Source: an uncultured Clostridia bacterium
GTDB lineage: Bacteria; Bacillota; Clostridia; Christensenellales; UBA1242
Direction: 5' to 3'
Assembly: GCA_947649575.1 (NCBI GenBank)
Contig: CANSRZ010000004.1
Location: forward strand, 71,569 to 135,568
DNA: 64,000 nt
Shown: positions 11,438 through 43,724 of the stretch, one piece after another
Numbering within the stretch: the stretch's first letter is position 1
Layout: every line of letters starts with the position of its first letter
The notes under the pieces: model-generated
Database searches by the model: none
Seen by the model: the letters and a program-made list of their open reading frames with translations, nothing else
Told to the model about the DNA's origin: nothing
Translations under genes and position numbers: made by a program

Positions 11438-11466
11438 TTGACTTTTGATATTAAAAATTATACAAT
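11438..11466 (+). promoter_or_regulatory. second candidate promoter upstream of the GLUG-repeat gene
   Basis: TTGACT (11438-43), 17-nt spacer, TACAAT (11461-66). Confidence 0.5.
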
Positions 11467-11564
11467 TTACTTATATTTTGAGTAAAAGTAAAAGCTTGCT
11501 AGATGACACCTTTGCTATGACTAAAAAGTGCATGCTTGCACATATTAACAAAGGAGAGTTTGTT

Positions 11565-14356: not shown

Positions 14357-14631
14357 AAACCGAGCTAGACGGAGAGTTAGCGGTGCTCTGTAACCTACAA
14401 TCCGCTATAGTAGGGTTGACGATTTGCTTCGGTTTAAATTTTTTGAATATGTGTGATGTTATTTAATGTTGAAGTCAAGGTCTTATGCAATTAAAATTCA
14501 TGAACCAGGTCAGAGCTTGACGGCAGCATCCTTAAGTGAACACTTTAGTGTGCCATAAGGTAGCTTTGGTGGAGTTAAATAATGTCAAGGCAGTCAGGGA
14601 ATTTTTATCAACGCAAATCGCTCGGTTTTGA
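14357..14631 (+). ncRNA. ffs: signal recognition particle RNA, large Bacillus type (scRNA)
   Basis: AGCGGTGCTCTGTAACCTACAATCCGCTATAGTAGGG matches the Alu-domain of B. subtilis scRNA. TCATGAACCAGGTCAG..GACGGCAGCATCCTTAAGTGAA matches domain IV. The 5' end AAAACCGAGC pairs with the 3' end GCTCGGTTTT. Ends are approximate. Confidence 0.85.
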
Positions 14632-17219: not shown

Positions 17220-18215
17220 ATGGATTATGTTACAAAATATATCGCTATTAAAGACGCACTTAATCAATATGGAATGAAAGACCTTGACGAAGCAAAAAAG
17301 ATTTGTCTTGACAATGGAATTGATGTTGAAAGTATTGTTAAAGGCGTTCAGCCAATCTGTTTTGAAAACGCTGTTAAGGCTTACGAACTCGGCACAGCAA
17401 TTGCAATCAAGAGCGGAGTAATATCTGCTTGCGAATGTGCTGAAAAAATAGGTGAGGGATTGCAAGCATTCTGCGTGAAAGGCTCGGTTGCTGATGACCG
17501 CCAAATTGGATTAGGTCATGGCAGGCTTGCTTCAAGACTTTTGGATGAAAAAACAAAATCTTTTGCATTCCTCGCTGGGCATGAATCTTTTGCAGCAGCA
17601 GAGGGGGCTATGGGAATTGTCCGCACTGCAAACAAAGTTAGAACAACTCCTCTTAATGTTATATTGAACGGACTTGGCAAAGACGCAGCATATATTATTG
17701 CAAGAATAAACGGCTTCACTTTTGTGCAAACAGAATACGACCACTATACGGGCGAACTTAAAATTGTCAAAGAGATACCTTTCTCAAAAACTGAGAAAGC
17801 AAACGTAAAAGTTTATGGTGCTTATGACGTTCCAGAGGGCGTTGCAATTATGCAGCACGAAAAAGTTGACGTTTCTATTACAGGCAATTCAACAAACCCA
17901 GTACGTTTCCAACATCCAGTTGCAGGCACTTACAAAAAGTGGTGCAATGAAAACGGAAGAAACTATTTTTCAGTTGCCTCAGGTGGCGGAACAGGCAGAA
18001 CTCTTCATCCAGACAATATGGCAGCAGGGCCTGCAAGTTATGGCTTGACTGACACTATGGGAAGAATGCACTGTGATGTTCAGTTTGCAGGTTCTTCATC
18101 AGTGCCAGCGCATGTTGCAATGATGGGCTTTATTGGCATGGGCAACAATCCAATTGTTGGTGCAACGGTGGCTCTTGCTGTTGCAGTTGCAACAAGCCCA
18201 AGCGTTCAGCATTAA
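17220..18215 (+). CDS. GGGtGRT family protein (function unknown)
   Basis: Contains the eponymous SGGGTGRTLHPDNMAAGPASYG motif. About 330 aa, as in that family. Confidence 0.8.
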   Translation: MDYVTKYIAIKDALNQYGMKDLDEAKKICLDNGIDVESIVKGVQPICFENAVKAYELGTAIAIKSGVISACECAEKIGEGLQAFCVKGSVADDRQIGLGHGRLASRLLDEKTKSFAFLAGHESFAAAEGAMGIVRTANKVRTTPLNVILNGLGKDAAYIIARINGFTFVQTEYDHYTGELKIVKEIPFSKTEKANVKVYGAYDVPEGVAIMQHEKVDVSITGNSTNPVRFQHPVAGTYKKWCNENGRNYFSVASGGGTGRTLHPDNMAAGPASYGLTDTMGRMHCDVQFAGSSSVPAHVAMMGFIGMGNNPIVGATVALAVAVATSPSVQH

Positions 18216-29172: not shown

Positions 29173-29203
29173 AAAAAAGTGGACTACAAAGTCCACTTTT
29201 TTT
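29173..29203. terminator. bidirectional terminator between pepF and the Cys-rich gene
   Basis: AAAAAAGTGGAC-TACAAA-GTCCACTTTTTTT. Confidence 0.85.
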
Positions 29204-29561
29204 AATCCTTTTTGCAATTGGCAAGCATGTAGCCAGCATACATATATAAAAGCGAACAAGGAATTTGGAAGTTTATGCAGCTACATGATGGCATGCAGGA
29301 TTGGATAGGGAAGTAGTTAAAATTTGGCTGTTGCCAACAAGGTTGCTGAAAGGGCGGGCAGATTTGAGGTGAAAATTGCGGAAAGCAAGAAGCGTTCTGC
29401 CAGCAAGAGCATTGATTTTTTGGACGATTGCAACGCGGGCAAAAGTCGAAGCATGGCTGGCAAGTGCATTGATGTGGTGGACGTCCACAATGAGGACAGA
29501 GGCGTGGCGGGCGATGAAAATCAAAACACATGCCCTCTACATAATTTGTATTTAATTTCAT
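29202..29561 (-). CDS. cysteine/proline/glutamine-rich protein (119 aa, 18 Cys)
   Basis: Repeated CPxC / CxC / QxC spacing (CPHCGRPPHQCTCQPCFDFCPRCNRPKNQCSC...). RBS AAGGA upstream, terminator downstream. The other frames here (29273..29524 -, 29324..29563 +) look like shadows. Confidence 0.55.
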   Translation of the reverse strand: MKLNTNYVEGMCFDFHRPPRLCPHCGRPPHQCTCQPCFDFCPRCNRPKNQCSCWQNASCFPQFSPQICPPFQQPCWQQPNFNYFPIQSCMPSCSCINFQIPCSLLYMYAGYMLANCKKD

Positions 29562-29592: not shown

Positions 29593-30609
29593 ATGAAAAT
29601 TTTTGCTAACAAAGCTGTCATGACTTTTATGGTCATTGTTGGAACTGTTATTGGCTCAGGATTTTTAAGCGGGAAAGAAATCGTTGTATTTTTCTCTCGC
29701 TTCGGAAATATGAGTTATTTTTGCATTTTTATTGCATTTTTTCTGTTTTTTGCGTTATTTTATTATTTTTTAAAATTTGGCGACATCATTGTTGACAAAT
29801 TGTCTAAAAGCAAATTTTCTAATATCCTTAATTGCTTTATTTGCTTTACACTTTCAAGCGCTATGTTTGCTGGCATTTTCAGTCTGGTTGAAGATATGCA
29901 TTTTGTTATAAAACTTGCAACTATGCTGATTGTTTTTGTGTACGCTTGTCGCGTTGCAATCAAAGGCGCAAGTTTGCTTGAAAGATTAAATCTTATTCTT
30001 GTGCCAATTATGATTATATTTTTGCTTATCAACCTTATCAGGTTGTTTTCTGTTAAAAGCGGAAGTTTATTCTTGGGCGGGTTTTATCCATTCAGCCTTT
30101 TCTTTTGCATTTTGTATGTTGTGCTTAATACTTCCAACTCAGCAATTGTTATTTCAAGCTTTGGCAAGGACCTTTCTAATAAGCAAAAAGTGCAAGTCAG
30201 TTTTTTTTCTGCACTTGCACTTTGTTTGATTCTTTTATTTGCAAATATAGTTCTTTTGCAAAACTCTTTTGTGTTCGGCGAAGATATGCCTATTCTTGAA
30301 CTTTTTGTTGGCCCACAAAAATTTGTCATGAGTTTAATTATTCTGCTCGGGTGCGTAACAACATTGTTTTCTTTGGTTTATAGTAACACGGGGTCTTTGA
30401 GGGGTGTGTGCAATAATAATATTTTTGTTTTGTTTATTGGTGTTGTTATGCCCTTTGCTTTAAGTTTTATGGGCTTTGGATTTATTGTTTCAAAATTTTA
30501 TCCACTTACAAGTGTGCTGGGGATATTTTTGTTATGCGATTTACTGTTGTTTCCTCTTTTCAAAAAGGTTTACAAGAAAATACATTCCGCCAGCAAGAAT
30601 AGACAATAA
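29593..30609 (+). CDS. polytopic membrane protein (YkvI-like)
   Basis: About 10 hydrophobic segments. N-terminal IGSGFLSGKEIVVFF resembles the YkvI-family GxGFASGQE motif. No obvious SD. Confidence 0.5.
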   Translation: MKIFANKAVMTFMVIVGTVIGSGFLSGKEIVVFFSRFGNMSYFCIFIAFFLFFALFYYFLKFGDIIVDKLSKSKFSNILNCFICFTLSSAMFAGIFSLVEDMHFVIKLATMLIVFVYACRVAIKGASLLERLNLILVPIMIIFLLINLIRLFSVKSGSLFLGGFYPFSLFFCILYVVLNTSNSAIVISSFGKDLSNKQKVQVSFFSALALCLILLFANIVLLQNSFVFGEDMPILELFVGPQKFVMSLIILLGCVTTLFSLVYSNTGSLRGVCNNNIFVLFIGVVMPFALSFMGFGFIVSKFYPLTSVLGIFLLCDLLLFPLFKKVYKKIHSASKNRQ

Positions 30610-31347
30610 AATTATGCTTGCCATAACAAGGTCAAGATTGAGCATGGACTTGCCATAATTAATGAGATAGCCAAGTCCTGCTGAACTTGAAATATATTCG
30701 CCCATAACAGTTCCGACCCAACTCATGCCAACATTGATTTTTAACACCGAAACAAATTCGGGGATTGCATTTGGCAGAATAAGTTTTCTTAATATTTGAA
30801 ACTTGCTTGCATGCATTGACTGCATAAGAAGTATCTTATCTTGGTCGCAAGATGTGAATGCATTTAATAATGATATGATTGTTATCACGATACATATAAG
30901 CACACACATCACAACTGTGGCTGAAAAGCCACTGCCAACCCAAAAGATAATCATTGGGCCAAGGGCTATTTTGGGCAAACTGTTTAAGATAACTAGATAT
31001 GGCTGTGAAACTTTTCTAGCGCGTTCGCTCCACCAAAGCAGGATTGCTATGATTGCTCCAAGCAGGGTGGCAACAATAAAGCCTATCACAGTTTCTGCCA
31101 AACTTATGCCCATGTGCATCCAAATTTCACCGCCAGCAATAAGACTGGCTATGCATTTGATAACTCTTGACGGGCTAGAAAAGAAAAATGGGTCTATCAC
31201 TTCAAAATGTGCTAGAAGTTCCCATAACCCTAAAAGCAGGGCTAGAATAAATATTTGCAGAAAGACTACTAAAATTTTTTCTTGTTTTAATCTTTTTATA
31301 TATTTTTTATGTGCCTGTGAAAAATTAACTTGTTTTTTGGTTTTCAT
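30541..31347 (-). CDS. ABC transporter permease (NitT/TauT-like)
   Basis: Six TM segments. EAA-like loop LMQSMHASKFQILRKLILPNAIP. Start placed at MKTKKQ (GGAGAA RBS), overlapping the ATPase gene end. Confidence 0.8.
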   Translation of the reverse strand: MKTKKQVNFSQAHKKYIKRLKQEKILVVFLQIFILALLLGLWELLAHFEVIDPFFFSSPSRVIKCIASLIAGGEIWMHMGISLAETVIGFIVATLLGAIIAILLWWSERARKVSQPYLVILNSLPKIALGPMIIFWVGSGFSATVVMCVLICIVITIISLLNAFTSCDQDKILLMQSMHASKFQILRKLILPNAIPEFVSVLKINVGMSWVGTVMGEYISSSAGLGYLINYGKSMLNLDLVMASIILLSILAGGMYFLVNLFEKRKQQ

Positions 31348-32101
31348 TGGTAAGACTTCTCCAAATGGTTTCAAAATACCTGCCAAATTCTTTGTCCTCG
31401 CGCTTTAATAGTGGCGTCTTACCCTCAAAGCTTAGGTCAACCACTTGCTTTGTGCAAGCTGGTCGTGATGACAACACAATTATTCTATCCGACATTGATA
31501 AAGCCTCTGAAATGTCGTGACTGACAAGCAGAGCGGTTTTTTGTTCGCGTTTAATAATATCATATACATCATCGCAGACAAGCAGCCTTGTCTGAAAATC
31601 GAGTGCTGAGAAAGGCTCGTCTAAAAGTAAAAGCTGAGGTTCTAGCATTAATGTTCGAATGAGCGCAACTCTTTGACGCATTCCGCCACTAAGCTGGCGA
31701 GGTTTTTTGTTTCGGAAGTTGTAGAGGTCATATTTTTTTAACAATTCTTCGGCACGAGCAAGTTTTTTGGGGTCTTTATTTTTCTTTTGTATTTCAAGCC
31801 CTAGGGTTATATTTTGCCAAATTGTGCGCCACTCAAAAAGATGGTCACGTTGGAACATATAGCCAACTTTGCCGTCATGTTTGCCAACTTTTTCATTGCC
31901 AATAAGGATTTCGCCTGTTGATGGCGTCAAAAGCCCTGCGGTCAAGGAAAGAATTGTTGTTTTTCCACATCCGCTTGGACCAACTATTGAAGCAAACTGA
32001 TTTTCATTTACTGAAAAGGTCAAGTCTTTAACAGCTTGAATTTCGTTATCTTTTGTTTGATAGAAATAACTTACACTATTGAATTGTAAAAAATTTTCCA
32101 T
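31325..32101 (-). CDS. ABC transporter ATP-binding protein (NitT/TauT-like)
   Basis: Walker A GPSGCGKTT. Signature LSGGMRQRVAL. Walker B LLLLDEPFSALD. Confidence 0.9.
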   Translation of the reverse strand: MENFLQFNSVSYFYQTKDNEIQAVKDLTFSVNENQFASIVGPSGCGKTTILSLTAGLLTPSTGEILIGNEKVGKHDGKVGYMFQRDHLFEWRTIWQNITLGLEIQKKNKDPKKLARAEELLKKYDLYNFRNKKPRQLSGGMRQRVALIRTLMLEPQLLLLDEPFSALDFQTRLLVCDDVYDIIKREQKTALLVSHDISEALSMSDRIIVLSSRPACTKQVVDLSFEGKTPLLKREDKEFGRYFETIWRSLTNENQKTS

Positions 32102-32181: not shown

Positions 32182-32210
32182 TTGAGTTCGAAAAATTTGT
32201 AAGATATAAT
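32182..32210 (+). promoter_or_regulatory. candidate promoter of the capsid-module operon
   Basis: TTGAGT (32182-87), 17-nt spacer, TATAAT (32205-10). Confidence 0.55.
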
Positions 32211-32220
32211 TTGGCAAAAG

Positions 32221-32529
32221 TTGCTTGGGGAGGATTTTGTGGATGAGGAAATTAAATTAAAAAAAGCCTTGCTTAAAAAGGCTCTCGGCTATAATGCTGA
32301 CGAGGTTGTTTGCGAATATGTGCTTGATGAGGACGGGCAAGCAAAGTTAAGCAAGAAAAAAGTTACTCGAAAACATTATGCTCCTGATATTTCAGCCGTT
32401 AAGGTTTTGCTTGAACAATATCACGGCGACTATGCCAGCGAGGTGCTTAACATGACCGACGAGGAATTAGAAATCGAAAAAAAGCGACTTTTGAATTTAT
32501 TAAAGGAGGAAGATAGTGGAGATAACTAA
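32221..32529 (+). CDS. terminase small subunit-like fragment (C-terminal region only)
   Basis: KKKVTRKHYAPDISAVKVLLEQYHGDY resembles the C-terminal part of Terminase_2-type TerS proteins. No N-terminal HTH. Start uncertain (TTG 32221 or GTG 32239). Confidence 0.4.
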   Translation: MLGEDFVDEEIKLKKALLKKALGYNADEVVCEYVLDEDGQAKLSKKKVTRKHYAPDISAVKVLLEQYHGDYASEVLNMTDEELEIEKKRLLNLLKEEDSGDN

Positions 32530-32737
32530 GTGCAAACATATTGTTAAATGCGACTTTTCTGGTTGCAACAACTTGGCACAGTTCTCTTTTTCAACAAAGG
32601 GCTTGATTAAGAGAGATTTATGCTTTTGTGAAGATTGTTTGAAAAGCATGTTTGAATGTTTTTCTAAAATGCAAATTCCAAAAGGAATTGAAAGCCCATT
32701 TAAATTAAACAAGAGGTTAAAGAAAAATGAAAAATAA
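32516..32737 (+). CDS. small Cys-rich (zinc-ribbon-like) protein
   Basis: GTG start after AAGGAGGA. Cys pairs CKHIVKC..C and CFCEDC. Overlaps both neighbours. Confidence 0.4.
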   Translation: MEITKCKHIVKCDFSGCNNLAQFSFSTKGLIKRDLCFCEDCLKSMFECFSKMQIPKGIESPFKLNKRLKKNEK

Positions 32738-34571
32738 AAATGTAGATAAAAAGAATTTAGTTAAAGATGTGATTGACGATTTTCATAAACGTCAAATTGA
32801 TAGAAAAAGTTTTGATTCTATTTGGCAAGTTAATATGAACTTTTTGCTTGGCAATCAATATTGCAATATTGGCTATGGCGGACTTTTAGAAGAGCAAGAC
32901 AAGCAATATTTTTGGCAGGAGAGGGAAGTTTTTAATCATATTGCACCTATTTATGATGTTCGCTTTGCAAAGCTGTCTAAGATTAAGCCAAAGATGACGG
33001 TTATTCCTGCGACAACTGATGAGCGTGATGTTAAAACTGCAAAGGTTTCTAAAAAAATTCTTTCAGCAGTTTACAACAAGATGAGTTTTGACGACAAAAT
33101 CAACACTGCATTAAAGTGGAGCGAGGTTTGCGGAACTTGTTTTTATAAAGTTGTCTGGTCAAACGAACTTGGACAAGTTGTTGGCATTGACGAGGACGGC
33201 AACAAAATCAGAAGCGGGGATATTGACATAAGCGTTTGCTCACCATTTGAAATTTATCCTGACAATATGTCGGCTGAAAGTCTTGACCAATGCCAATCTA
33301 TTATTCACGCAAAAGCGTACAGTGTTAGCGAAATCAAAGAAATGTTTGGCGTTGACGTTGAGGGCGGAACAATAAAAACATTTACTTTAAACAATGTTAT
33401 TTCAGGGCTTGGCGGACTTGGCTATAACGCAACGGCTACAAAAATTACCCAAAGCGTGAAAGGTGATTCTGCAATTGTTATTGAGCGTTATGAAAGACCA
33501 AGCAAAGGTTATCCAAATGGCAGACTTGTTATTGTTGCGGGCGACAAACTTGTATTTGACGGCGAACTTCCTTATCTTAACGGCATTGACGGCAAGCGTG
33601 ATTTCCCATTTGTTCGTCAGGTTAGTTTTGAAAACCCAGGCTGTTTCTGGGGAAGCAGTGTGATTGAAAGACTTATTCCTGTGCAAAGGGCTTATAATGC
33701 TGTTAAAAACAGAAAGCATGAATTTATTAATCGTTTATCGCTTGGCATTTTGAGTGTTGAGGACGGTTCAGTTGATATTGAAAACTTGGAGGATGAGGGC
33801 TTGTGTCCTGGCAAAGTTCTTGTGTATAGACAAGGCTCAAATCAGCCTAAATATCTGTCTGCTGAAAGTATTCCGACAGGGCTTAGCGATGAAGAAGATA
33901 AACTTTTAAGTGAATTTTCTAAAATAAGCGGAGTTAGTGAACTTTTGGATAGTAATTATCTTGCCTCAAATGTGTCAGGCTCGGCACTTGAACTTTTGAT
34001 TAATCAAGATGAAATGCGATTAAATACAAGCAGCGAAAGTTTGAAAAGTGCTATCAAATTTGTTGCTCAACATATTTTGAGATTGTATAAGCAATTTGCT
34101 CTTTTCCCAAGACTTGCAAAACTCGTTGGAGAAAACGGTCAGGTTGAGATGTTCTATTTCTCATCAAACGATGTGTCTAGTGACGATGTTGTTATCAGCG
34201 CTCAAAATGATATGGGGGAAACCTTAACTCAAAGACGAGAAACTTTGTTTAAACTGCTTGAAAAAGGACTGTTATATGACCAAGACGGCAATTTAAACAG
34301 CAGAGCAAAGGCTAAATTTTTGGAAATGTTCGGGCTTGGAGTTTGGGAAAGCGGTCAAGATTTGAACAGTTTGCAACTTAACAATGCCGAAGAAGAAAAT
34401 CTTAAAATGCTTGACGGCGTTGTTGTTAAGAATAGCGAAATTGATGACAATCAAATTCATATAAATGCACATATTGCATTCATGCTTGGCGAGGATTATA
34501 AAAAGGCAAAGGCTAAAAATCCAAAACTTGAAAGTATATTCTTAGAGCATGTAAGGGCTCATAAAGCTTAA
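32727..34571 (+). CDS. phage portal-like protein
   Basis: 614 aa. N-terminal pattern R..D.KSFDSIWQVNMNFLLGNQY followed by VFNHIAPIYDVRFAKLSKIKPKMTVIPATTDERDVKTAKVSKKIL is typical of portal N-termini. Position is upstream of scaffold and capsid genes. Confidence 0.6.
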   Translation: MKNKNVDKKNLVKDVIDDFHKRQIDRKSFDSIWQVNMNFLLGNQYCNIGYGGLLEEQDKQYFWQEREVFNHIAPIYDVRFAKLSKIKPKMTVIPATTDERDVKTAKVSKKILSAVYNKMSFDDKINTALKWSEVCGTCFYKVVWSNELGQVVGIDEDGNKIRSGDIDISVCSPFEIYPDNMSAESLDQCQSIIHAKAYSVSEIKEMFGVDVEGGTIKTFTLNNVISGLGGLGYNATATKITQSVKGDSAIVIERYERPSKGYPNGRLVIVAGDKLVFDGELPYLNGIDGKRDFPFVRQVSFENPGCFWGSSVIERLIPVQRAYNAVKNRKHEFINRLSLGILSVEDGSVDIENLEDEGLCPGKVLVYRQGSNQPKYLSAESIPTGLSDEEDKLLSEFSKISGVSELLDSNYLASNVSGSALELLINQDEMRLNTSSESLKSAIKFVAQHILRLYKQFALFPRLAKLVGENGQVEMFYFSSNDVSSDDVVISAQNDMGETLTQRRETLFKLLEKGLLYDQDGNLNSRAKAKFLEMFGLGVWESGQDLNSLQLNNAEEENLKMLDGVVVKNSEIDDNQIHINAHIAFMLGEDYKKAKAKNPKLESIFLEHVRAHKA

Positions 34572-34588
34572 AAATAAAAGGAGTTATT

Positions 34589-35269
34589 ATGGAAAAAGAT
34601 TTTAGAGAACAACCATTAGAGGAACCGGCAAATGCTTTAAACGTAGCGAATGAGGAAAGTGCTGTGAGTGAGAATGGCTCTCTTGAACAAAGGCAAGAGG
34701 AAAGTTCTGAAAATTTAAACAGCCAAAGCGATAATTTTGAAAAAGAGAGTCAAACTTTTGGCAAATTTAAAAATGCGGAAGCGTTGTTAGAAGCTTATAA
34801 CAATCTTCAATCAGAATTCACCAAAAAGTGCCAGCGCCTAAGTGAACTTGAAAAAGACAAAACTGAAAAAGCAACACAAGAACAAAATACAGAAAGTTTA
34901 CTGGAAAACAATTTAAATCAGTTCCTTTCAAAGAACGCTGAAGCCAAAGATTATGCCGAAGAGTTGAAACAAAAAATTTCTATTCAAGGCGATTATTCTG
35001 AAAACGCTTTTCAAAATGTTTGGGCAGGCATTGTGCTTGACCATATCAAATCAAAAGCATGTGTTCAGGATAAAATAGTGGACAAATATGTCCTTTCTGA
35101 CGAAAATGTAAAAAATATAGTTATTCAAAATTATCTAAATTCACTTAAAGAAAATTCTTCACCAATTGTAATTTCTTCTAAAAAGGGTGAGAGGGTGTCT
35201 GATTTATCATCGGACACTCCAGCTTCCCTTAACGATGCAAGAATTATGATGGAAAGATTATTTAACTGA
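34589..35269 (+). CDS. scaffolding-like protein
   Basis: Acidic, Q/E/K-rich, predicted coiled coil. Lies between the portal-like and capsid-like genes. Confidence 0.5.
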   Translation: MEKDFREQPLEEPANALNVANEESAVSENGSLEQRQEESSENLNSQSDNFEKESQTFGKFKNAEALLEAYNNLQSEFTKKCQRLSELEKDKTEKATQEQNTESLLENNLNQFLSKNAEAKDYAEELKQKISIQGDYSENAFQNVWAGIVLDHIKSKACVQDKIVDKYVLSDENVKNIVIQNYLNSLKENSSPIVISSKKGERVSDLSSDTPASLNDARIMMERLFN

Positions 35270-35344
35270 TTTTTATATAATTTATAATAAAAAAACTACA
35301 TTTTTGTTAAATTATTTAAATTTTTAATTTTTAAGGAGATGAAA

Positions 35345-36544
35345 ATGGTTACTTTAACTACTGCAAACAACGCACTTAAAGAAGTTTACGTTGGCGTTGT
35401 AGCAAATCAATTAAACATTAATGCAAACCCACTTCTTGCTCAAATCAAAAGAAGCAACAAGGATATATGGGGAAAAGAAATCGTAAAAATGACTACTTAT
35501 GGAATTAACGGCGGTGTTGGCGCTGGCGAAGAAGCTGGCGAACTTCCTGTTGCAACTGGCAATAACTATGCTCAAATTCGCGCAAGCCTTAAAAACCTTT
35601 ATGGTCAACTTGAAATTTCTGACAAAGCAATAAAAAGCTCATCAAACAACATCGGCGCTTTTGTTGACCTTTTGGCTTATGAAATGGAGGGGCTTGTAAA
35701 GGCTAGCTCTTTCAACCTTGGAAGAATGCTTTATGGCGATGGCACTGGCAAAGTTGCTACTATTTCTGCTGTTGATACAGCAAGCAAAACTGTTACTTGC
35801 GACAGCGTTAGAAACATAATCGAGGGCATGATTTTAAATGCTTATGCTGGCGACACAAAGAAAAACACTTCTGTTATCAAAGTTACTTATGTTGACCGCG
35901 TTAACAATAAGTTCACTTTTGACGGAACAATCTATGCAGGTGATGAACTTGCTGAAAGTCAAGTTTTGTATGTTCAAGGCTCAAAAGGACTTGAAATTTC
36001 TGGTCTTGGCAAAATTTTCTCTGAAACAGAGGATACTCTTTATGGACTTTCAAAAGCTGACAATGCTTGGCTTAAACCTTATCAAACTGCTACTACTGAA
36101 AAAGAAATCTCTGATATTTTGATGCAAGAAGCTCTTGACTTCTTAGAGGAAAACGTTGGCTCTAACATCAACTTTATTGCAACTTCAAGCAAAGTTCGCA
36201 GAGCTTATCAAGAATATCTTGGCGCTTACAGAAGAAACGTTGAAATTATGGAACTTAACGGCGGATTTAAAACACTTTCTCATAATGGAATCCCTGTTGT
36301 TGCTGACCGTTTTGTTGCTGATGATGAAATGTTTATGCTTAACACAAACGACTTTACTCTTCATGAACTTGACGACTGGAAATGGATTGAGGGTGAGGAT
36401 GGAAGCGTTCTTCGTCAAAATCCAGGACATGCAACTTATAGTGCAACTCTTGTTAAATATGCTGAACTTGTTTGTGATAGACCAGCAGGACAAGCAAAAA
36501 TTCGCGGAATCAAATCTAGCGTAACAAATCCATTCCATGCTTAA
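35345..36544 (+). CDS. major capsid-like protein
   Basis: About 400 aa. Start at the second ATG, 6 nt after AAGGAG. Followed by a strong terminator. Position after the scaffold gene. Sequence features (LYGQLEISDKA, RMLYGDGTGKV) are reminiscent of HK97-fold capsid proteins. Confidence 0.6.
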   Translation: MVTLTTANNALKEVYVGVVANQLNINANPLLAQIKRSNKDIWGKEIVKMTTYGINGGVGAGEEAGELPVATGNNYAQIRASLKNLYGQLEISDKAIKSSSNNIGAFVDLLAYEMEGLVKASSFNLGRMLYGDGTGKVATISAVDTASKTVTCDSVRNIIEGMILNAYAGDTKKNTSVIKVTYVDRVNNKFTFDGTIYAGDELAESQVLYVQGSKGLEISGLGKIFSETEDTLYGLSKADNAWLKPYQTATTEKEISDILMQEALDFLEENVGSNINFIATSSKVRRAYQEYLGAYRRNVEIMELNGGFKTLSHNGIPVVADRFVADDEMFMLNTNDFTLHELDDWKWIEGEDGSVLRQNPGHATYSATLVKYAELVCDRPAGQAKIRGIKSSVTNPFHA

Positions 36545-36549
36545 TAAAT

Positions 36550-36579
36550 AAAAAGCCAAAAATAATTTTTTGGCTTTTT
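36550..36579 (+). terminator. terminator/attenuator after the capsid-like gene
   Basis: AAAAAGCCAAAAA-TAA-TTTTTTGGCTTTTT. Confidence 0.8.
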
Positions 36580-36647
36580 ATTCTATTTTAGTTATAAAAA
36601 ATGTGTTTTTTGCAGTTTTTTGATTAATTTTTTGAAAATTAGGAGTT

Positions 36648-36965
36648 ATGATGAAAAAATATTTTTTGATAAATAGCGATGTGTATTTTATAGCAGAGCG
36701 TATAAAGCAAATTGATAAAAACTATTTTATTGTTTTCAACCGATTGAAAAACAAGTTTGAAGTTCACGCCTTTGGGCAAGAGGGAGGCACTTATTGTTTT
36801 ACTATTCCATTTGACGCCCTTGACGAGCGAACGCTTGAATTTACTTTAAAAACGCGAAGCCAAAATATGAATCAAATCATAAAAGAGATTGACGAGGCTA
36901 ATCAAAAGCTGCAAAAAGACAACCTGAAATTTGCGACTAAAAAAATTGAGGAGGTTTTATTATGA
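36648..36965 (+). CDS. hypothetical protein (105 aa), capsid module
   Basis: Intact ORF. Its stop overlaps the next start (ATGA). Confidence 0.45.
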   Translation: MMKKYFLINSDVYFIAERIKQIDKNYFIVFNRLKNKFEVHAFGQEGGTYCFTIPFDALDERTLEFTLKTRSQNMNQIIKEIDEANQKLQKDNLKFATKKIEEVLL

Positions 36966-37522
36966 ACGCAATAGATATTATTAAGCTTGCTTGTGATTTT
37001 ACTGGCAATGAAGATTTGGCGATGAAGCTTGAAGAAGAAAACCCAGAGTTTACAACTTCTGAAAACAAAACATTAGCTGTAATGCTGAAATGCTTGAACT
37101 TAATTCAAAACGAAGTGGCAACTGAATATATTCCACTTGTTGCATTTCAAGATGTGACAGCCGTGGACTTCAAAGTTGATTATTCTAAGTTTGACAAAAA
37201 GCCAATTTCTATAATTTCTGCAAAAGACAAACTTGGCAGAAATATCCGCTTTAAAGCTTTTGCCGATTATCTGATGTTATTTGCTGGCAAGGCAAAAATA
37301 AAATATTATTATATGCCAGAAGAGATAAATTCAATCCAAGATACACTTTCTCAGCCACTTTTGCCTATGCGCATATATGCATATGGCATAGCTAGAGAAT
37401 ATTATCTTCTTCAAAATCTTTCTGACGATGCTGATATTTGGGAGGTTAGATTCAAGGATAGTCTATCTGTTTTTGCAAGAAAAAAACAAGATGTCAAAAT
37501 GCCTTGTAGGAGGTGGTTATGA
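36962..37522 (+). CDS. hypothetical protein, possible head-tail connector
   Basis: 186 aa. The N-terminal IIKLACDFTGNEDL resembles gp6-like connector N-termini. ATGA coupling on both sides. Confidence 0.35.
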   Translation: MNAIDIIKLACDFTGNEDLAMKLEEENPEFTTSENKTLAVMLKCLNLIQNEVATEYIPLVAFQDVTAVDFKVDYSKFDKKPISIISAKDKLGRNIRFKAFADYLMLFAGKAKIKYYYMPEEINSIQDTLSQPLLPMRIYAYGIAREYYLLQNLSDDADIWEVRFKDSLSVFARKKQDVKMPCRRWL

Positions 37523-39003
37523 TTTATAAACACCTTGTAAAGGGCAAAAAAAGCACCAGCAAAGATTTGGTGTTTGATGTCTTTGATGATTATGTTAATT
37601 TAAACGATTCAGAAGATAAACAAAAATTTAACAGAGTTTCTAGCACTTATAATTTTGACTTATCTAACGGGCAGTTGTTGACAGGCTATGGATTTAAAGA
37701 TTTAAGCATGCCAACAAACACGTCTGATATGGACAACGAAACATTAATCAATGTTAGAGGAAATGAAATAACTGCAATTTGGTCATTCAGATGGTTCGAC
37801 TTTGCTTTAAAAGACAATAAATATTATATTGTTTACTTTAACGATGGAAACTATCTGGAATTTGCTAATCTTTTTCATGAAAGACCGCTTCCGCTTTATG
37901 CAGAAACTCATTTCAATAAAGCACCAATCGGATGCCCAATACGTTATGAAAAAGATGACGCCTTGTTGTTTTCATCAGATGTTGACGGCTTGTTTTTGCT
38001 GACAGGTGCAATCACCAAAACTTTCAAACTTGCTCCAAGGCTATTGTCGCTTTGCTCGGCATTTGATAAAATTTTTGCGGTTATTGCAAATGACAGAGCA
38101 AGCTTGATGTACACAGATGATAAAAACATTTCGCATTGGACTGAAAACAATTTGGAAGAAATCAAGTTTGACGATGAAAGAGGGAAACTCAATAAAGTTA
38201 TACTTTTGAACGATTATGTTTATGTTATACGTGACTTTGGAATAAGCAGAATTTCTGTTTACAGCACAAGTGGCAACTTTGATATCAGTCAACTTTATCA
38301 ATCGGACAGCTATATTTTCCCAGGAACGATTGCCTCATCTGGTGATAAAATATACTTTTTGGAGGGCTCTGGAATCTTTGCTTTTAATGGTTCATCTACA
38401 AGCAAGATTAATCTTGACTGCGATGAACTGTTGAAAAACGCTGACAAACGTAATGCCAGTGCAGTTTGTTTTGAGGGGAAATATTATCTTTCGTGCAGAT
38501 ATGATTTTAACGACGGACAAACTGTGGGCTGTGAAAGCAATCCTAAATGTGTGAACAATTTGCTTTTGGTGCTTGACCTTGTTTCAAAAAAGGTGAATGT
38601 GCTTAGAGGTGTTGATATTCATCAACTTTGCGTGTTGAACAATCCTTATAAAAGCAAAGTTGTTGCATGTTTTAACGGCGAGTATTGCAATAGAATTGGG
38701 GAACTGACAAATGACGGAATAATATTTGATAATGCGACGCAAAAAATTTGGACAAGCGTGCTTAGCACTTTGTCTTATCCAGAGAAATTGAAGCGTGTTA
38801 AATTTTTGAATATAAAAACAAAAACCGATTGTGATGTTGTGATAACAAGCGAAAAGCAGTCAAGGACTTATCATGTTTATGGAAGTGATAAACTTCAACA
38901 AATCAAAGTGGATGTGACAGGACGAGAACTTCAAATATCTTTCAAATGCAATGATGCAAATGCTAACATTTCTAATGTGAAGTTAATATATAATGTGATA
39001 TGA
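37519..39003 (+). CDS. hypothetical structural-type protein (494 aa)
   Basis: ATG 5 nt after AGGAGG, overlapping the previous stop. Beta-rich repetitive composition. No Walker A motif, so it is not a terminase. Confidence 0.45.
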   Translation: MIYKHLVKGKKSTSKDLVFDVFDDYVNLNDSEDKQKFNRVSSTYNFDLSNGQLLTGYGFKDLSMPTNTSDMDNETLINVRGNEITAIWSFRWFDFALKDNKYYIVYFNDGNYLEFANLFHERPLPLYAETHFNKAPIGCPIRYEKDDALLFSSDVDGLFLLTGAITKTFKLAPRLLSLCSAFDKIFAVIANDRASLMYTDDKNISHWTENNLEEIKFDDERGKLNKVILLNDYVYVIRDFGISRISVYSTSGNFDISQLYQSDSYIFPGTIASSGDKIYFLEGSGIFAFNGSSTSKINLDCDELLKNADKRNASAVCFEGKYYLSCRYDFNDGQTVGCESNPKCVNNLLLVLDLVSKKVNVLRGVDIHQLCVLNNPYKSKVVACFNGEYCNRIGELTNDGIIFDNATQKIWTSVLSTLSYPEKLKRVKFLNIKTKTDCDVVITSEKQSRTYHVYGSDKLQQIKVDVTGRELQISFKCNDANANISNVKLIYNVI

Positions 39004-39118
39004 TAATTATAAATAAAGGGCATATTTCTCACTACAAAAAAAAGGAATATTTAAAAGAGGTGAGCAATATGAAAAATATTTTTAAGGAAGAAGATTACAA
39101 TTCTGAGAGGATAGAAAA

Positions 39119-39346
39119 ATGAACTTTTGGAATGAAATAATCAGTGTGGTGGTAAGCAATGGCGTTTTTGCAACTTTGTTTGTCTTTTTGTTTTTCTATC
39201 AACTTAAAGACAGCGCAAAACGTGAAAAGGCATATCAAAGCACCATAAAGGATTTAACTGAACATTTGGAAGTTATTGAAGCTGTTAAACAAGATGTTGA
39301 AGAGCTTAAAAATGTGATAACAAGAGGAGGGTGTGATGAAGAATAA
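39119..39346 (+). CDS. BhlA/UviB-family holin-like protein
   Basis: 75 aa. One N-terminal TM (VVSNGVFATLFVFLFFYQLKDSAKREKAYQ) followed by a charged helix, as in BhlA/UviB. Confidence 0.55.
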   Translation: MNFWNEIISVVVSNGVFATLFVFLFFYQLKDSAKREKAYQSTIKDLTEHLEVIEAVKQDVEELKNVITRGGCDEE

Positions 39347-39605
39347 ATTCCGCTCTTATGGCTTTTGGACTGCTCTTGCAGGTGCTGTTGTTGTGCTTAT
39401 CAATGCACTTGGACAAGCTTTTGGATTTACAATTGATAATGAAATTGTCACTAATATAATCATGGCAATTGCAGGAGTTCTTGTTGTTTTTGGAGTTGTT
39501 TCAATGCCTAAAAAGGATAATGAAGATAAAGAGGAAGAAAATTTGGATATTCAAGAAAAGGATAATCAAACTTCTGAGCAAGAAGAAAATATGCAAGATA
39601 AATAG
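39333..39605 (+). CDS. two-TM holin-like protein
   Basis: 90 aa. Two TM segments (FWTALAGAVVVLINAL, IIMAIAGVLVVFGVV) and an acidic tail. Overlaps the previous gene after AGGAGG. Confidence 0.5.
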   Translation: MMKNKFRSYGFWTALAGAVVVLINALGQAFGFTIDNEIVTNIIMAIAGVLVVFGVVSMPKKDNEDKEEENLDIQEKDNQTSEQEENMQDK

Positions 39606-39634
39606 AAAAAACCGAGCAAATTGCTCGGTTTTTT
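39606..39634. terminator. bidirectional terminator closing the capsid module and the convergent lipoprotein gene
   Basis: AAAAAACCGAGCA-AAT-TGCTCGGTTTTTT. Confidence 0.85.
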
Positions 39635-39635
39635 G

Positions 39636-41999
39636 TTATTTTCTTGTTGAGGCAGGGCCGTCAATCATTCCAATGCCTACTTGGAAACTATAGTTTTTAG
39701 GTTGAGCACCAGAGTTTTGGTCATAAGTGTCTTTCACAATTTTAAAAGCAATTTCAATGTAGTCACATCCGTTTTCATCCAAAGCGAATGCAGCAGGATT
39801 TAATATACCATAAGAAACATACTTTGTTGTGTCGCCAGTGATGGGGTCAGTTTCAACTGCGCGGTCAACAAGCTGATAATAATCTTTGCGTTTATCATTT
39901 CCGTTGATAGGCAGGCGAGTGCCGATGCTTTGCCAGCCAATGTATCCGTCAGTGATTGAGTTTAACGCGCCATCAGCAATTTGTCTGTTCCATTCTCCAC
40001 ACTTGACACCAGTTTGATTGCCTTGCTCATCGCGCTCTTTAAGTCCAAACATCATCATTGTGTTATTCTTTGAACCATAGTCAAATGGTCCAGCTTTAAC
40101 CTCAATTGTGAACTGTGGATTATCAGCATCGCCCTCAGGATTTGGAATAACTTTCCAAGTATTTGTTGCCTTTGTATATTTGTGCAAATAAACATTTATT
40201 GTTAAACTTGCATCGTCTGGCACTGCCTGATTGCCATATTTGTCATATCCATAGCGGAAGAAGAGCATCATGTTAGAAAATTCATAGTCTTTGCCAAACA
40301 TAAAGCACATGCTTTGATATTCCATAACAGGAATGTTTTTAAATTCATTGCCACTGTCGGCCGAGATAAAGAAATCATTGCCATAATAATCGCATATTTC
40401 TGAGGCTACAAATTTATCGTCAATGTTAGGTCCGTTTTCGTCGCCAGAAGAATTGCCGATAGAAACTTGCTTTGTACAAATATCAATTATTGCCTCAACA
40501 TTTTCTTCATATTTGCGGTCAATTTCAATAGGCTTGTTAGTTTTTGTAGTTTCTATATCAGGGTCAAATTGTCCATCAATAACATTCCCATTTGAATCTT
40601 TATAATATACAACTTGATTGCCAATTTTGCGTACCATAACTTCTTTAGTTTGTGGTTTGCCTAAAGGGTCGTTTACAATAGGGTCATTTTCATCAATTTT
40701 GCCATCACCATTTGTGTCAATGGTTGAAATATTTGCAACATATTGAGTGTAGGTCTTTTCAGTTTGAGCAATTTCAAATGTGCTGTCGCTGTCAGTGCCA
40801 ATAATGTTTTCAAGAATCCAATTTTTCAGTCTGATTTGTTGACGTTCAGTAACACCAACATATGTACCAATTTGCTTAAAAATTTCTTTAATATTTTCAA
40901 GCGCAACTTCAGCAGAGGATTTATCAGCAGTTGCAGGGTATCCATCAACTTTAACTATAGGCATACCAGTAGTTGAGTCTATATTAACAGTAATATTATT
41001 AGGTCTTAAATCAAGGTTAATGCAATAGATTGCATATTCAAGTGCCTTGACATAGTCGGAATAAACACCATTGTTTTGCTTAGTGTATTCAGTGCCTAAA
41101 AAAGTTCTAGAATAAGCGTCAGTATTATTAGTTAAACTCCAATAGTAATTTATTAAGTTTGGGAGATTTCCTGTTTGTATATAATCACCATTAATATCAA
41201 TATTGTTAAGTATATTTTTTAATTTATTCTGGTCTTTATAGAAATAAATATTATTGTCATTATCATAATAATAACTTGTAGGGTATGCTGAACCCCCAAT
41301 AGTTATTTCGCTGTTATATAAAGGGTTGTCAGTATAAATTTTTTGAATTTGGGTCAAATATGAGTTATTATTGATAGTTTTTTCTATTGGGCTTAAAGGG
41401 AATTGATTGTCTGCGTATGTATAAACTGTTTGTAAGCCAAGTGTCCAGTTCCAATCGCTATTATGATTTGCTGTTATTTCAAAAAACTGTGTCTGCCCTT
41501 TTACTGTTTCATTGCCAGCATTATCCAATTCAATTTTTTTAAGTGTTATGTCGCTATATTCTTGCATTTGATATCTTATACTGTCGTACCAGCCTGTTTT
41601 AATTTCTGCGTCAGAACTAATAATTATTGGCTTTTCTGTTTTTTGACTTTTGACATATAAATTATTGTCATTGCTTTGGTCTGCAAGACCATATGTGCCT
41701 AGCAGTCCATTTAATAGCCACCAAGCATACTGTTCATAATAATTGCTGTTTTCTTCTCCACCAACATTGTCATCCCAATTATAGCTTGTAGGGCGATATA
41801 AAACCTTTGTTCCATAAAGGGGAACTGACATTGACGATTGGCGCTGTTCAAGATATTCTTCATAACTTATCTGACCATTTTCATAAGCTTCTTTAAGGCT
41901 ATCGGCATAATCAGAGTCATTGCCAGCACAGCCAACAAAAATAAAGCCTATCATTAGACATAAAATATAAGCAAATATTCTTGACAATTTCTTTTTCAT
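39636..41999 (-). CDS. large lipoprotein (787 aa), function unknown
   Basis: Signal peptide with lipobox FIFVGC. Contains one DTNGDGKIDENDP calcium-loop (dockerin/EF-hand-like) motif. Confidence 0.65.
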   Translation of the reverse strand: MKKKLSRIFAYILCLMIGFIFVGCAGNDSDYADSLKEAYENGQISYEEYLEQRQSSMSVPLYGTKVLYRPTSYNWDDNVGGEENSNYYEQYAWWLLNGLLGTYGLADQSNDNNLYVKSQKTEKPIIISSDAEIKTGWYDSIRYQMQEYSDITLKKIELDNAGNETVKGQTQFFEITANHNSDWNWTLGLQTVYTYADNQFPLSPIEKTINNNSYLTQIQKIYTDNPLYNSEITIGGSAYPTSYYYDNDNNIYFYKDQNKLKNILNNIDINGDYIQTGNLPNLINYYWSLTNNTDAYSRTFLGTEYTKQNNGVYSDYVKALEYAIYCINLDLRPNNITVNIDSTTGMPIVKVDGYPATADKSSAEVALENIKEIFKQIGTYVGVTERQQIRLKNWILENIIGTDSDSTFEIAQTEKTYTQYVANISTIDTNGDGKIDENDPIVNDPLGKPQTKEVMVRKIGNQVVYYKDSNGNVIDGQFDPDIETTKTNKPIEIDRKYEENVEAIIDICTKQVSIGNSSGDENGPNIDDKFVASEICDYYGNDFFISADSGNEFKNIPVMEYQSMCFMFGKDYEFSNMMLFFRYGYDKYGNQAVPDDASLTINVYLHKYTKATNTWKVIPNPEGDADNPQFTIEVKAGPFDYGSKNNTMMMFGLKERDEQGNQTGVKCGEWNRQIADGALNSITDGYIGWQSIGTRLPINGNDKRKDYYQLVDRAVETDPITGDTTKYVSYGILNPAAFALDENGCDYIEIAFKIVKDTYDQNSGAQPKNYSFQVGIGMIDGPASTRK

Positions 42000-42055
42000 A
42001 ACTATATTTTATACTAAAATTAAATAAAAATCAAATAAAATAATATATTTATAAT

Positions 42056-42083
42056 AAAAAATAGAGCATATTGCTCTATTTTA
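42056..42083 (-). terminator. terminator after the 465-aa lipoprotein gene
   Basis: AAAATAGAGCA-TAT-TGCTCTATTTT. A T run follows on the minus strand. Confidence 0.7.
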
Positions 42084-43466
42084 TAAATTTTGTTCAATTT
42101 CTTGTTGTGGTGTTTGATGAAGTAAGATGTCTTGATCTTTAACATTTTCAGGCAAAACTTGTATTGTTTGTTTACTTTCAAGTGTAAACTTTGAATCATC
42201 TTCAGCTTCTAAATAATTTTTGATGAAAGCAGGGATAGGAGCAGTTTGCGCAGAATCATTTAGAACAGTAAAAACAATTTCTCTTATATCTTTTCCGTCA
42301 AATAATCTCATAGTATGTCTATCGTCCTGAGGTCCATGCCCCAAAGTCCAGCCTGTCCAAATAGGTGTAACATAATCTTCTTTAAAAACTTTCTTATAAG
42401 ATTTATCAACATCCAATTGGTCAAAGCCTTGCATTGTGTTGATACTATTCCCATAAAATAATTCTCCTCCCATTTCGTTTCTAGTATAAGTCCACTCTCG
42501 CAATGCATCGGCGCCTTCAATTTTGGCGTTATCTTGAAATAAATCTTGCCAAGATAAATCTTTTTCTAGAACTTTTTTTGTAAGTGCTGTATGAATCATT
42601 GTGCTATTGTTGACCACCATGACAAAACCAATAGTATCTATAAATTGACTGTTTTTGCAATATAAGTAAGATTGTATAATTTTATAATTATCGTAATTTG
42701 GAGTTACCATATTGACCAAAAGATTGGTTGCTTCTTTTAAGTTTTCTTCCAGTTTTTCGATGTGGGCTGGATTATTTGGGTCAAACTGGTTTACAACAGG
42801 TGGTTTTTCTTGTGTGTTATCATTATACTCAGTTGGAACTTTTACGTTTGTAGCACCTGCGTTGTTGATAACTACTGTTTGTGTGCCGTTGCTGATTGTT
42901 ATTGTGTCAGTTGTATTGTTATAGCTATAAGTTATGTTTGTTTTGCCTGAAGCTGTTTCCATTGTGCCAGTTATTGTGTTGTCTTCAACTTTTTCAAGTT
43001 TAACGCTGTCAAGCATTGCATCAAAGCGCTGTTTGCATTCATCAGCCATTGGGATGTCGTTTGCAATATTATCCTTTTGCCATTCTTGCGCTGACATTGA
43101 ATAAACAAAATTGCCGTCAGAAGCTTTTTCATAGATTTTTGTGCCATTTTTGTCGGTCACTTTCATTTTATTGCCGTCTATTTCATATTTAACGCTTTCG
43201 TTGCCTTGTTTAAATTCAATTGTTACATCATCAGCCATTGCGATTTTGTTTCTAACAATTTCAAATTCAGCATTAACTTCTTCAATTTTTTTATCAGGGT
43301 CTGGCGTTTCAATAATGATTGGTGGCTTTTCTTGTTCGTTATTGACAGGCTTTTTATTATTATCACAAGCTGTTAACACTGCACCACCACTAAAAGCCAT
43401 TGTCAAAGCTAGAATGCCAGTTAAAAATTTATGTTTTTTAAGTTCAGGTTTGTCTATATATTTCAT
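42081..43466 (-). CDS. lipoprotein (461 aa), function unknown
   Basis: Start at the second ATG (MKYIDKPEL), preceded by GGAGGT. Lipobox AVLTAC. Confidence 0.65.
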   Translation of the reverse strand: MKYIDKPELKKHKFLTGILALTMAFSGGAVLTACDNNKKPVNNEQEKPPIIIETPDPDKKIEEVNAEFEIVRNKIAMADDVTIEFKQGNESVKYEIDGNKMKVTDKNGTKIYEKASDGNFVYSMSAQEWQKDNIANDIPMADECKQRFDAMLDSVKLEKVEDNTITGTMETASGKTNITYSYNNTTDTITISNGTQTVVINNAGATNVKVPTEYNDNTQEKPPVVNQFDPNNPAHIEKLEENLKEATNLLVNMVTPNYDNYKIIQSYLYCKNSQFIDTIGFVMVVNNSTMIHTALTKKVLEKDLSWQDLFQDNAKIEGADALREWTYTRNEMGGELFYGNSINTMQGFDQLDVDKSYKKVFKEDYVTPIWTGWTLGHGPQDDRHTMRLFDGKDIREIVFTVLNDSAQTAPIPAFIKNYLEAEDDSKFTLESKQTIQVLPENVKDQDILLHQTPQQEIEQNL

Positions 43467-43724
43467 AATTACCTCCATATTTTCAATTATATTATATCAT
43501 AATCAAAAACAAATTGCAATAGTTTTTTAATTTTTTATTTTATTTAAAATTCAAATAAAAGGAGTAAAAGCAATAAAAAATTCACTTCAAAATTTGCTTT
43601 CGACAAAAAGTTGCAAAATTTAACGTTTTTTGCTATATTTTAGCCGTTTTTCTGTTTGGCAAAATTTTTCTTTTATTTTATACTGACATTGCTTTTAAAA
43701 GCAGAGTATTTAAAAGGAGTATTT

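Follow-up and report, generated by a model that had tools for sequence, protein, structure and literature searches.

To our knowledge, very few elements resembling gene transfer agents (GTAs) are known, and nearly all of them come from Proteobacteria. The first example from the gut, described only in 2026, is FpGTA of Faecalibacterium prausnitzii, a podovirus-like GTA with its genes in two loci (PMC12946183, Nat Commun 2026). Its operon I (~10.5 kb) holds ten open reading frames (ORFs) for a small terminase subunit (TerS) without a DNA-binding domain, the large terminase subunit (TerL), the portal, an "N4-gp56 family" capsid protein and conserved hypothetical proteins, and its operon II, 125 kb away, encodes baseplate, fibre, holin and endolysin; the capsids measure ~40 nm and contain ~8.5-9 kb of DNA (PMC12946183). 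GTA-type packaging was also reported in Christensenellaceae, of ~6.3 kb in QANA01 and ~4.1 kb in HGM11616, with no locus assigned (PMC12946183). Here we analysed a 64,000-nt stretch of DNA (the window) from an uncultured Clostridia bacterium (contig CANSRZ010000004.1, positions 71,569 to 135,568 of the forward strand), in which a block of ten genes, termed g1 to g8, h1 and h2, is predicted to encode a phage-type head, a short tail and holins. We read this block as the structural and holin half of a split, domesticated podovirus-type GTA-like system (a viriform) with its packaging motor at another locus, a reading to which we assign a probability of roughly 55%; GTA-type packaging of DNA, taken by itself, we consider evenly balanced. 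The locus is a concrete candidate for the 4-6 kb packaging in Christensenellaceae that lacks assigned genes.

FpGTA was the sole closely comparable described system that we found. Both elements are chromosomal podovirus-like clusters of head and short-tail genes with about ten ORFs in gut Clostridia, both have a TerS-like protein without a DNA-binding domain, and replication and integration genes are present in neither; both would have their genes spread over two loci and be released by lysis, which for the present element is proposed from its genes, and the short tail of FpGTA has its counterpart in the nozzle fold of g8. In contrast to FpGTA, whose capsid protein carries the NCBI name of the N4-gp56 family (RCH50849.1), g5 belongs to capsid_maj_Podo, and the N4-gp56 family gave no match to g5 at E <= 0.01. 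TerL adjoins the portal in operon I of FpGTA but would lie elsewhere here, the holin and endolysin genes of FpGTA stand with the fibre genes in operon II whereas the holin genes here accompany the structural genes, the gene between portal and capsid is Prp-like there and is here the acidic g4 with no family match, and the host group is different. Because the capsid family differs, the present element appears to go back to an independent domestication of a short-tailed phage. In function it would resemble FpGTA, but by the annotated families and gene order of the latter it falls outside the FpGTA family.

Like RcGTA and other alphaproteobacterial GTAs, the element is inherited vertically under purifying selection and very probably domesticated, and its essential genes would be dispersed over several loci. 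Those GTAs have siphovirus-like long tails, unlike the present one, and their gene families and host phylum are unrelated to it. TerL of the RcGTA type lies inside the head-tail cluster. The small terminase of that type lacks a DNA-binding domain (PMC12946183), and none is recognisable in g1. With the head-neck regions of the podoviruses P22, SU10 and T7, the block shares the order portal, scaffold, capsid, small connectors and nozzle, and the families or folds of portal, capsid and nozzle match; unlike in these phages, the TerL, tail needle, fibre or tailspike and endolysin genes are not at the locus, nor are replication, lysogeny and regulatory genes, and the block is fixed in the host chromosome. 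A complete P22/SU10-like prophage is ruled out, as the locus consists of head-neck and holin genes only, and an encapsulin reading was rejected since a portal is present.

The element family is widespread: among uncultured Clostridia, at least 146 species-representative genomes encode relatives of the portal, of which the best 80 loci were analysed. Profile searches upheld the portal and capsid identities that the original prediction had proposed for a 614-aa and a roughly 400-aa protein, g3 and g5, as well as its two holin-like proteins (Table 1). The portal also weakly matches the phage GP4 portal (8jov_0). The capsid protein scored 256 bits against NF033394 capsid_maj_Podo (cutoff 80), matched phrog_14242 at 2e-58 and is 27-30% identical to annotated actinophage capsid genes across 97% of its length; the call rests on the NCBIfam and PHROG profiles, the AlphaFold2 (AF2) model, from a shallow alignment of 65-85% identity, being unusable with a predicted local distance difference test score (pLDDT) of 47. 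Between portal and capsid lies g4, which matched no family in the family profile scans and is, from synteny only, a putative scaffold. The original prediction had described g1 as a C-terminal fragment of a TerS-like protein. Its match to phrog_309 spans only profile positions 195-265 of 319, which is the C-terminal part of the profile, but g1 is a full-length, conserved protein of ~96-102 aa with the same length in 72 of the 80 related loci; it has no recognisable DNA-binding domain, its profile gave no meaningful match against the PDB, and its true start is likely the GTG at 32239, behind a GGAGG sequence, for a protein of 96 aa. The adjacent g2 is conserved in 62 of the 80 loci and found no match in the family profile scans, PHROG and NCBIfam included.

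As no sequence family was found for g8, it was modelled by AF2 from 54 homologs, resulting in a pLDDT of 88 and a predicted TM-score (pTM) of 0.88. Searching this model with Foldseek returned podovirus tail-complex chains as the top matches, with Pa223 9nwi_Y the best (6e-19, TM 0.70) and VP1 8zkk_O, GP4 8jov_A, the P22 tail complex 9jg6_a (a 470-residue chain), SU10 and T7 gp12 as further matches, and the sequence profile of g8 matched SU10 7z47_G at 1e-3. On the strength of the predicted fold we confidently assign g8 as a podovirus nozzle or tail hub. Upstream of it, g6 gave no significant family or PDB match in profile searches and is by position a candidate head-completion or connector protein, and g7, likewise with no PDB or family match, is a candidate portal-nozzle adaptor resembling T7 gp11 and P22 gp4 in position and size. 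The order portal, scaffold-like g4, capsid, g6, g7 and nozzle is the head-neck order of T7/P22-type phages. With a nozzle identified and this gene order, the block is therefore not the capsid-only, tail-less module first described; g7 is probably the adaptor. Screening the module proteins with PADLOC defence-system models yielded a sole match, g6 at 7e-4, which is at chance level.

According to our model, the conserved sigma-70-type promoter would drive one operon whose portal, scaffold-like g4 and capsid protein would make a portal-bearing HK97-class capsid, whose g6, g7 (the presumed adaptor) and g8 nozzle would make a minimal short tail, and which would add the TerS-like g1, the zinc-ribbon g2 and two holins. 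Particles would form, host DNA would be packaged, and the holins would release the particles.

Comparison of the related loci revealed two architectures. Class A consists of the window and ~50 species with the same ten-gene module at the same chromosomal site, in the layout memb338, ATP-binding cassette (ABC) permease (-), ABC ATPase (-), then g1, g2, portal, g4, capsid, g6, g7, g8, h1, h2 and host genes; the host metagenome-assembled genomes (MAGs) of this lineage are labelled Christensenella, Eubacteriales or Clostridia. A block of structural and holin genes only, fixed in the chromosome with the same layout in ~50 species, is a trait of GTAs and viriforms. Each module gene is intact across class A, and the class is monophyletic in the portal tree. 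Ratios of nonsynonymous to synonymous substitution rates (dN/dS), ranging over class A pairs with unsaturated dS of 0.5-1.2, were 0.01-0.04 for the portal, 0.03-0.06 for the capsid, 0.01-0.03 for g1, 0.03-0.10 for g2 and 0.05-0.13 for the nozzle, with g4 the fastest-evolving module gene (0.08-0.46) and the adjacent ABC genes at 0.02-0.05. Pairwise portal identity correlated with that of the ABC ATPase (Spearman 0.81) and of the permease (0.80; Mantel 0/999) as closely as the ATPase and permease correlated with each other (0.81), and 34 of 42 class A loci carry a TTGNNN-N17/18-TATAAT-like site at the position equivalent to the promoter of the window. Intact genes, low dN/dS, host co-divergence and a kept promoter together therefore exclude a decaying remnant, in line with the earlier view that this is not simple decay, and argue strongly against a mobile satellite. 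The module is passed on vertically under purifying selection and has very probably been domesticated.

In class B, made up of ~25 species whose portals are 45-53% identical to that of the window, c20, c21 and a 481-aa TerL directly adjoin g1 on its upstream side. The TerL, with the Walker A motif GGNRSGKT, matches phrog_2 (3e-31) and Terminase_6N; c20 is a regulator of ~188 aa with a sigma-70 region-4 or phage activator-like domain, and c21 lies on the strand opposite to its neighbours. Located between TerL and portal are g1 and usually g2, and the nozzle gene is followed by variable fibre-like genes (for instance an 838-aa "tail protein", phrog_5302), by c22 (DUF7934) and by the holin genes. 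Profiles of c21 and c22 gave no meaningful match against the PDB. GyrA, polysaccharide deacetylase and an SSB-like gene recur in the class B flanks across species, and class B therefore also looks chromosomal and not freshly integrated. We take the arrangement with c20, c21 and TerL next to g1 as the ancestral cluster, which would then still be intact in these ~25 species.

Further variation was seen among the relatives. The gene of the c22 protein (~317 aa; for example L057:18178-19167), for which neither PDB nor PHROG gave a match, is invariably placed between tail and holin genes in class B and in a sister group of class A that likewise has no TerL, and is missing from class A. One TerL-bearing subclade (L054-L060, L122, L124, L126, L239; for example L054:12745-15112) has two tandem paralogous capsid genes of ~390 aa each. 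Seven loci (L094, L118, L129, L136, L142, L147, L150) keep c20, c21, TerL, g1, g2, portal, g4 and capsid and have g6-g8 swapped for ORFs of ~516, 374, 902-946, 365 and 204 aa (for example L118 downstream of 11179), which may represent a different tail type on the same head module. TerL is shortened to 176-308 aa in L089 (2559-6868), L123 (3376-7263), L127 and L143 and is there flanked by large inserted ORFs, either of 367 and 732 aa or, in L127 and L143, a pair of ~510 and 536 aa, suggesting that the TerL gene or the TerL/g1 boundary is a recurrent insertion target. Searches with the capsid reached, in Clostridia of gut and rumen, more than 4,500 protein clusters; the exhaustive search gave 3,065 clusters at 50% identity, with uninformative cluster names. 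Searching the IMG/VR viral contigs with a single capsid sequence found nothing, but an alignment-based capsid scan did succeed, returning ~60 relatives, nearly all with the class B layout; in a few of them the genes that follow the capsid gene form a different module.

Using the TerL, c20, c21, c22 and fibre-like genes of the relatives as tblastn queries, we found no match in the 64-kb window or at any of the class A loci, and no TerL within 10 kb of the ~50 class A loci, in agreement with the original prediction that the locus has no TerL. In the portal tree all TerL-less loci, namely class A and the sister group (L050, L052, L082, L083), form one clade nested among TerL-bearing loci, showing that the TerL-less state arose only once. 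The TerL-bearing loci nearest to this clade are L064/L089 in the tree and L223/L229/L231 by portal identity, and in the latter three a 744-1126-aa ORF is inserted between TerL and g1.

Scanning metagenomes with a TerL profile uncovered orphan TerLs that are intact and have no g1, g2, portal, capsid or nozzle gene within 5-10 kb. In the TerL tree the orphans fall in a small clade with L064/L223/L229/L231; a database search with a profile of this clade returned 4,876 TerLs, mostly 476-aa TerLs at the top of the list. The orphan locus reads giant Glug-repeat protein, p409, MgsA, p315, c20, c21 (-), TerL, p815/p835, an NMT1/SsuA-type substrate-binding protein (SBP) gene (-) and Val/LeuRS. Dozens of independent assemblies, from at least two species plus L227, share this context, which sits mid-contig on contigs of 270-342 kb. 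At a dS of 1.5, the orphan TerLs of the two species are 88% identical and have a dN/dS of 0.05, close to the 0.03 of MgsA. Given this conservation and dN/dS, the orphan half-locus with TerL is in its own right a chromosomal feature that is conserved and under selection.

The two kinds of locus have junctions that complement each other. A lone SBP gene, closest in NCBIfam to SsuA_fam/SaoX, closes the orphan half, and the module begins after an ABC ATPase and permease pair without an SBP gene; the ATPase (SaoA) and permease of the window and the binding protein of the orphan locus are parts of one importer type. No ABC ATPase or permease gene was found beside the orphan binding-protein gene, and no NMT1/SsuA-like substrate-binding gene was present in the window or in the 80 related loci. 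Judging from gene order, a single inversion is most likely to have given both observed junctions, and it would place all flanking genes in the right orientation. The model starts from an ancestral cluster c20>, c21<, TerL>, p8xx>, g1> ... h2> (> and < giving the strand) and a second ancestral arrangement memb338>, permease<, ATPase<, SBP<, ValRS>; an inversion with breakpoints between SBP and ATPase and between p8xx and g1 would have separated the TerL half from g1 once, leaving TerL>, p8xx> joined to SBP<, ValRS> and memb338>, permease<, ATPase< joined to g1> and the rest of the module. With the TerL half split off in this way, TerL would therefore act in trans from the second locus, which we hold to be moderately probable and which resembles the dispersed loci of other GTAs. 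If true, one rearrangement dispersed a domesticated virus without loss of function, and the case may show how such systems turn multi-locus.

Beside TerL in these lineages stands a fast-evolving family of large proteins (744-1126 aa) with a faint Glug match (L223, L229, L231, L301-L306; for example L301:11504-14884). In the lineage nearest the TerL-less clade, TerL is always followed by a member of this family, which stays with TerL in the orphan loci (L307:11609-14116) and may serve the particle as a fibre or adhesin. Within the window, a 946-aa ORF at 11445-14285 (+), just upstream of the signal recognition particle (SRP) RNA gene (14360-14625), has no Pfam family and shows weak similarity (25-32% over parts) to the large proteins that follow TerL in the orphan loci.

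Several points weigh against this reading of a split system. The model places the orphan TerL half and the class A module in the same genomes, and no case of both in one genome was found; the names of the MAGs also differ, being CAYBLG for the orphan TerL and CAYEFH for a class A capsid. In the sister group, which retains c22, different genes lie upstream of g1, and this calls for additional rearrangements or for separation on more than one occasion. Endolysin, fibre and receptor-binding genes were not found in the locus. Moreover, the trees are neighbour-joining trees without support values, and the gene calling was crude.

Among the alternatives, the one that survives best holds that TerL was truly lost and that the shell of portal and nozzle is kept as a terminase-independent particle for a non-DNA purpose, as an empty or protein-loaded capsid, a phage decoy or a lysis-released structure that packages no DNA. 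It agrees with the absence of TerL from the window and the surroundings of the class A loci, with the likewise vanished late-activator-like c20, fibre-like genes and c22, and with a module that has its own sigma-70-type promoter and is still strongly purified by selection in all its genes. That selection, however, is among the strongest on g1 and the portal, which is hard to explain without packaging, and a neighbouring lineage has selected orphan TerL half-loci with a junction complementary to that of the module; an orphan TerL that had no portal partner would be just as hard to explain. We regard this alternative as unlikely. Its strict form, in which strong purifying selection kept a shell with portal and nozzle while at least 50 species radiated, none with a terminase at any place in its genome, and the shell was repurposed, possibly for protein or RNA cargo, as a phage decoy or as a lysis-coupled structure, is less probable again; if the class A genomes have no TerL, a portal-bearing capsid has been kept for a purpose other than DNA packaging.

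A PBSX-like particle, which may package DNA and acts as a bacteriocin-like killing or altruistic-lysis device, seems similarly improbable. The PHROG annotation ties the BhlA-type holin family to bacteriocin production or immunity, the locus has no fibre or receptor-binding gene, and the authors of FpGTA raise the same caveat for their own element (PMC12946183); known tailocins, however, kill via contractile or long tails, and only a podovirus nozzle is present here. This is a variant of the GTA-like reading and not exclusive of it, as the data do not separate killing from gene transfer.

The domesticated GTA-like system that the original prediction had offered as one option remained the best fit, and the satellite that it had named beside it did not hold up. 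Capsid-forming phage-inducible chromosomal islands (cf-PICIs) are mobile elements that encode an integrase, a replication module and a TerS and TerL of their own, and they have no tail genes. Such a satellite, making its own heads and borrowing TerL and fibres from a helper phage, would explain a head-gene island with capsid, portal and connector-like genes and without TerL and fibres. Unlike in cf-PICIs, integrase, replication and TerL genes were seen neither in the block nor among the scanned window ORFs, and excision and repressor genes and att-like boundaries were not seen either; the module has a nozzle or tail-hub gene, is fixed at the same chromosomal site in ~50 species with host-like co-divergence, and has relatives with TerL in cis and host genes recurring in their flanks. 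A satellite is therefore very improbable. Least credible of all is an inert prophage remnant awaiting decay after a deletion: the fuller cluster of the relatives, with TerL and fibre-like genes, does indicate that genes were lost from the locus, but the relaxed selection expected of a remnant is not seen at all, with ten ORFs all intact in ~50 species, dN/dS of 0.01-0.13 at dS up to ~1.2, a conserved promoter, and a TerL-less state of single origin that has since been retained throughout a large radiation.

Table 1. Positions, strands and supporting evidence of the module genes, their signals and the adjoining ABC genes in the window.
Feature	Position	Strand	Evidence or remarks
ABC importer permease	30541-31386	-	NCBIfam TauC/SaoP/SsuC; left neighbour of module
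ABC importer ATPase	31325-32101	-	Pfam ABC_tran; NCBIfam best match SaoA 4e-57
Promoter, sigma-70-type, TTGAGT-N17-TATAAT	32182-32210	+	Sequence pattern
g1, small TerS-like protein	32221-32529	+	phrog_309 (terminase small subunit) 9e-6
g2, 73-aa zinc-ribbon-like protein	32516-32737	+	Invariant cysteines C12, C17, C38, C41
g3, portal, P22/SU10 type	32727-34571	+	PF16510 6e-17; phrog_156 3e-35
g4, acidic scaffold-like protein	34589-35269	+	Position between portal and capsid; in 77/80 loci
g5, major capsid protein, podovirus type	35339-36544	+	NCBIfam NF033394 capsid_maj_Podo 6e-76
Hairpin, AT-rich, 16-bp, then T-rich tail, 3' of capsid gene g5	36547-36582	+	
g6, 105-aa conserved protein	36648-36965	+	Present in 68/80 loci
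g7, 186-aa protein	36962-37522	+	In 71/80 loci, always directly upstream of nozzle gene
g8, predicted podovirus nozzle / tail hub, 496 aa	37513-39003	+	AF2 model and Foldseek
h1, BhlA-family holin	39119-39346	+	PF10960 5e-19
h2, Phage_holin_1-type holin	39333-39605	+	PF04531 2e-5; phrog_297 9e-11
Bidirectional intrinsic terminator closing operon	39606-39634	both	13-bp stem, T-runs on each strand

The layout of the block agrees with what had been read from the sequence. Its ten ORFs, all on the + strand, fill 32221-39605 with tight or overlapping boundaries, including start/stop overlaps at g1/g2, g2/g3, g6/g7 (ATGA), g7/g8 and h1/h2, and the promoter, post-capsid hairpin and bidirectional terminator were all found in place (Table 1). 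The database gene call of g5 starts at 35345. The hairpin behind the capsid gene is a possible partial terminator, and stable structures are common in the gap between the major capsid protein gene and g6 of class A loci, in a conservation scan with a crude T-tail criterion. Between the nozzle gene and h1, at 39070-39123 (+), lies a 17-codon ORF with a good ribosome-binding site, where in the closest relative a gene for 41 aa is called (L308:11488-11613).

The surroundings proved to be those of a housekeeping region, with convergent ABC genes on the left and lipoprotein-like genes on the right as had been noted. The ABC pair is of the NitT/TauT (Sao/Ssu/Tau) type, forms the convergent left side of the block, and adjoins g1 in ~45 class A loci. 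Further left lies core chromosome with TopA, TrmFO, HslU, SRP RNA, IleRS, cysteine desulfurases and PepF, and on the right two large lipoprotein-like ORFs are followed by PcrA, LigA, EF-G, EF-Tu, LspA and RluD. Outside the block, each large window ORF scanned was a host-type gene, and the GC content of the block does not differ from that of the flanks. In accordance with the original prediction, integrase and replication genes were absent among the annotated ORFs of the window, and also among those of the representative flank clusters.

The two lipoprotein-like ORFs directly after the module (39636-43478, -; 787 and 465 aa) are Asn-rich, have no Pfam family and evolve very fast, with 24-45% identity even to the closest relatives L001/L002. 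At 29202-29561 (-), a 119-aa Cys/Pro/Gln-rich protein with repeated CxxC-like motifs and no family match is kept beside the memb338 gene in 28 class A loci. Farther away, at 17220-18215 (+), the window encodes a strongly conserved GGGtGRT-family protein (PF14057 6e-177) that is unrelated to the module.

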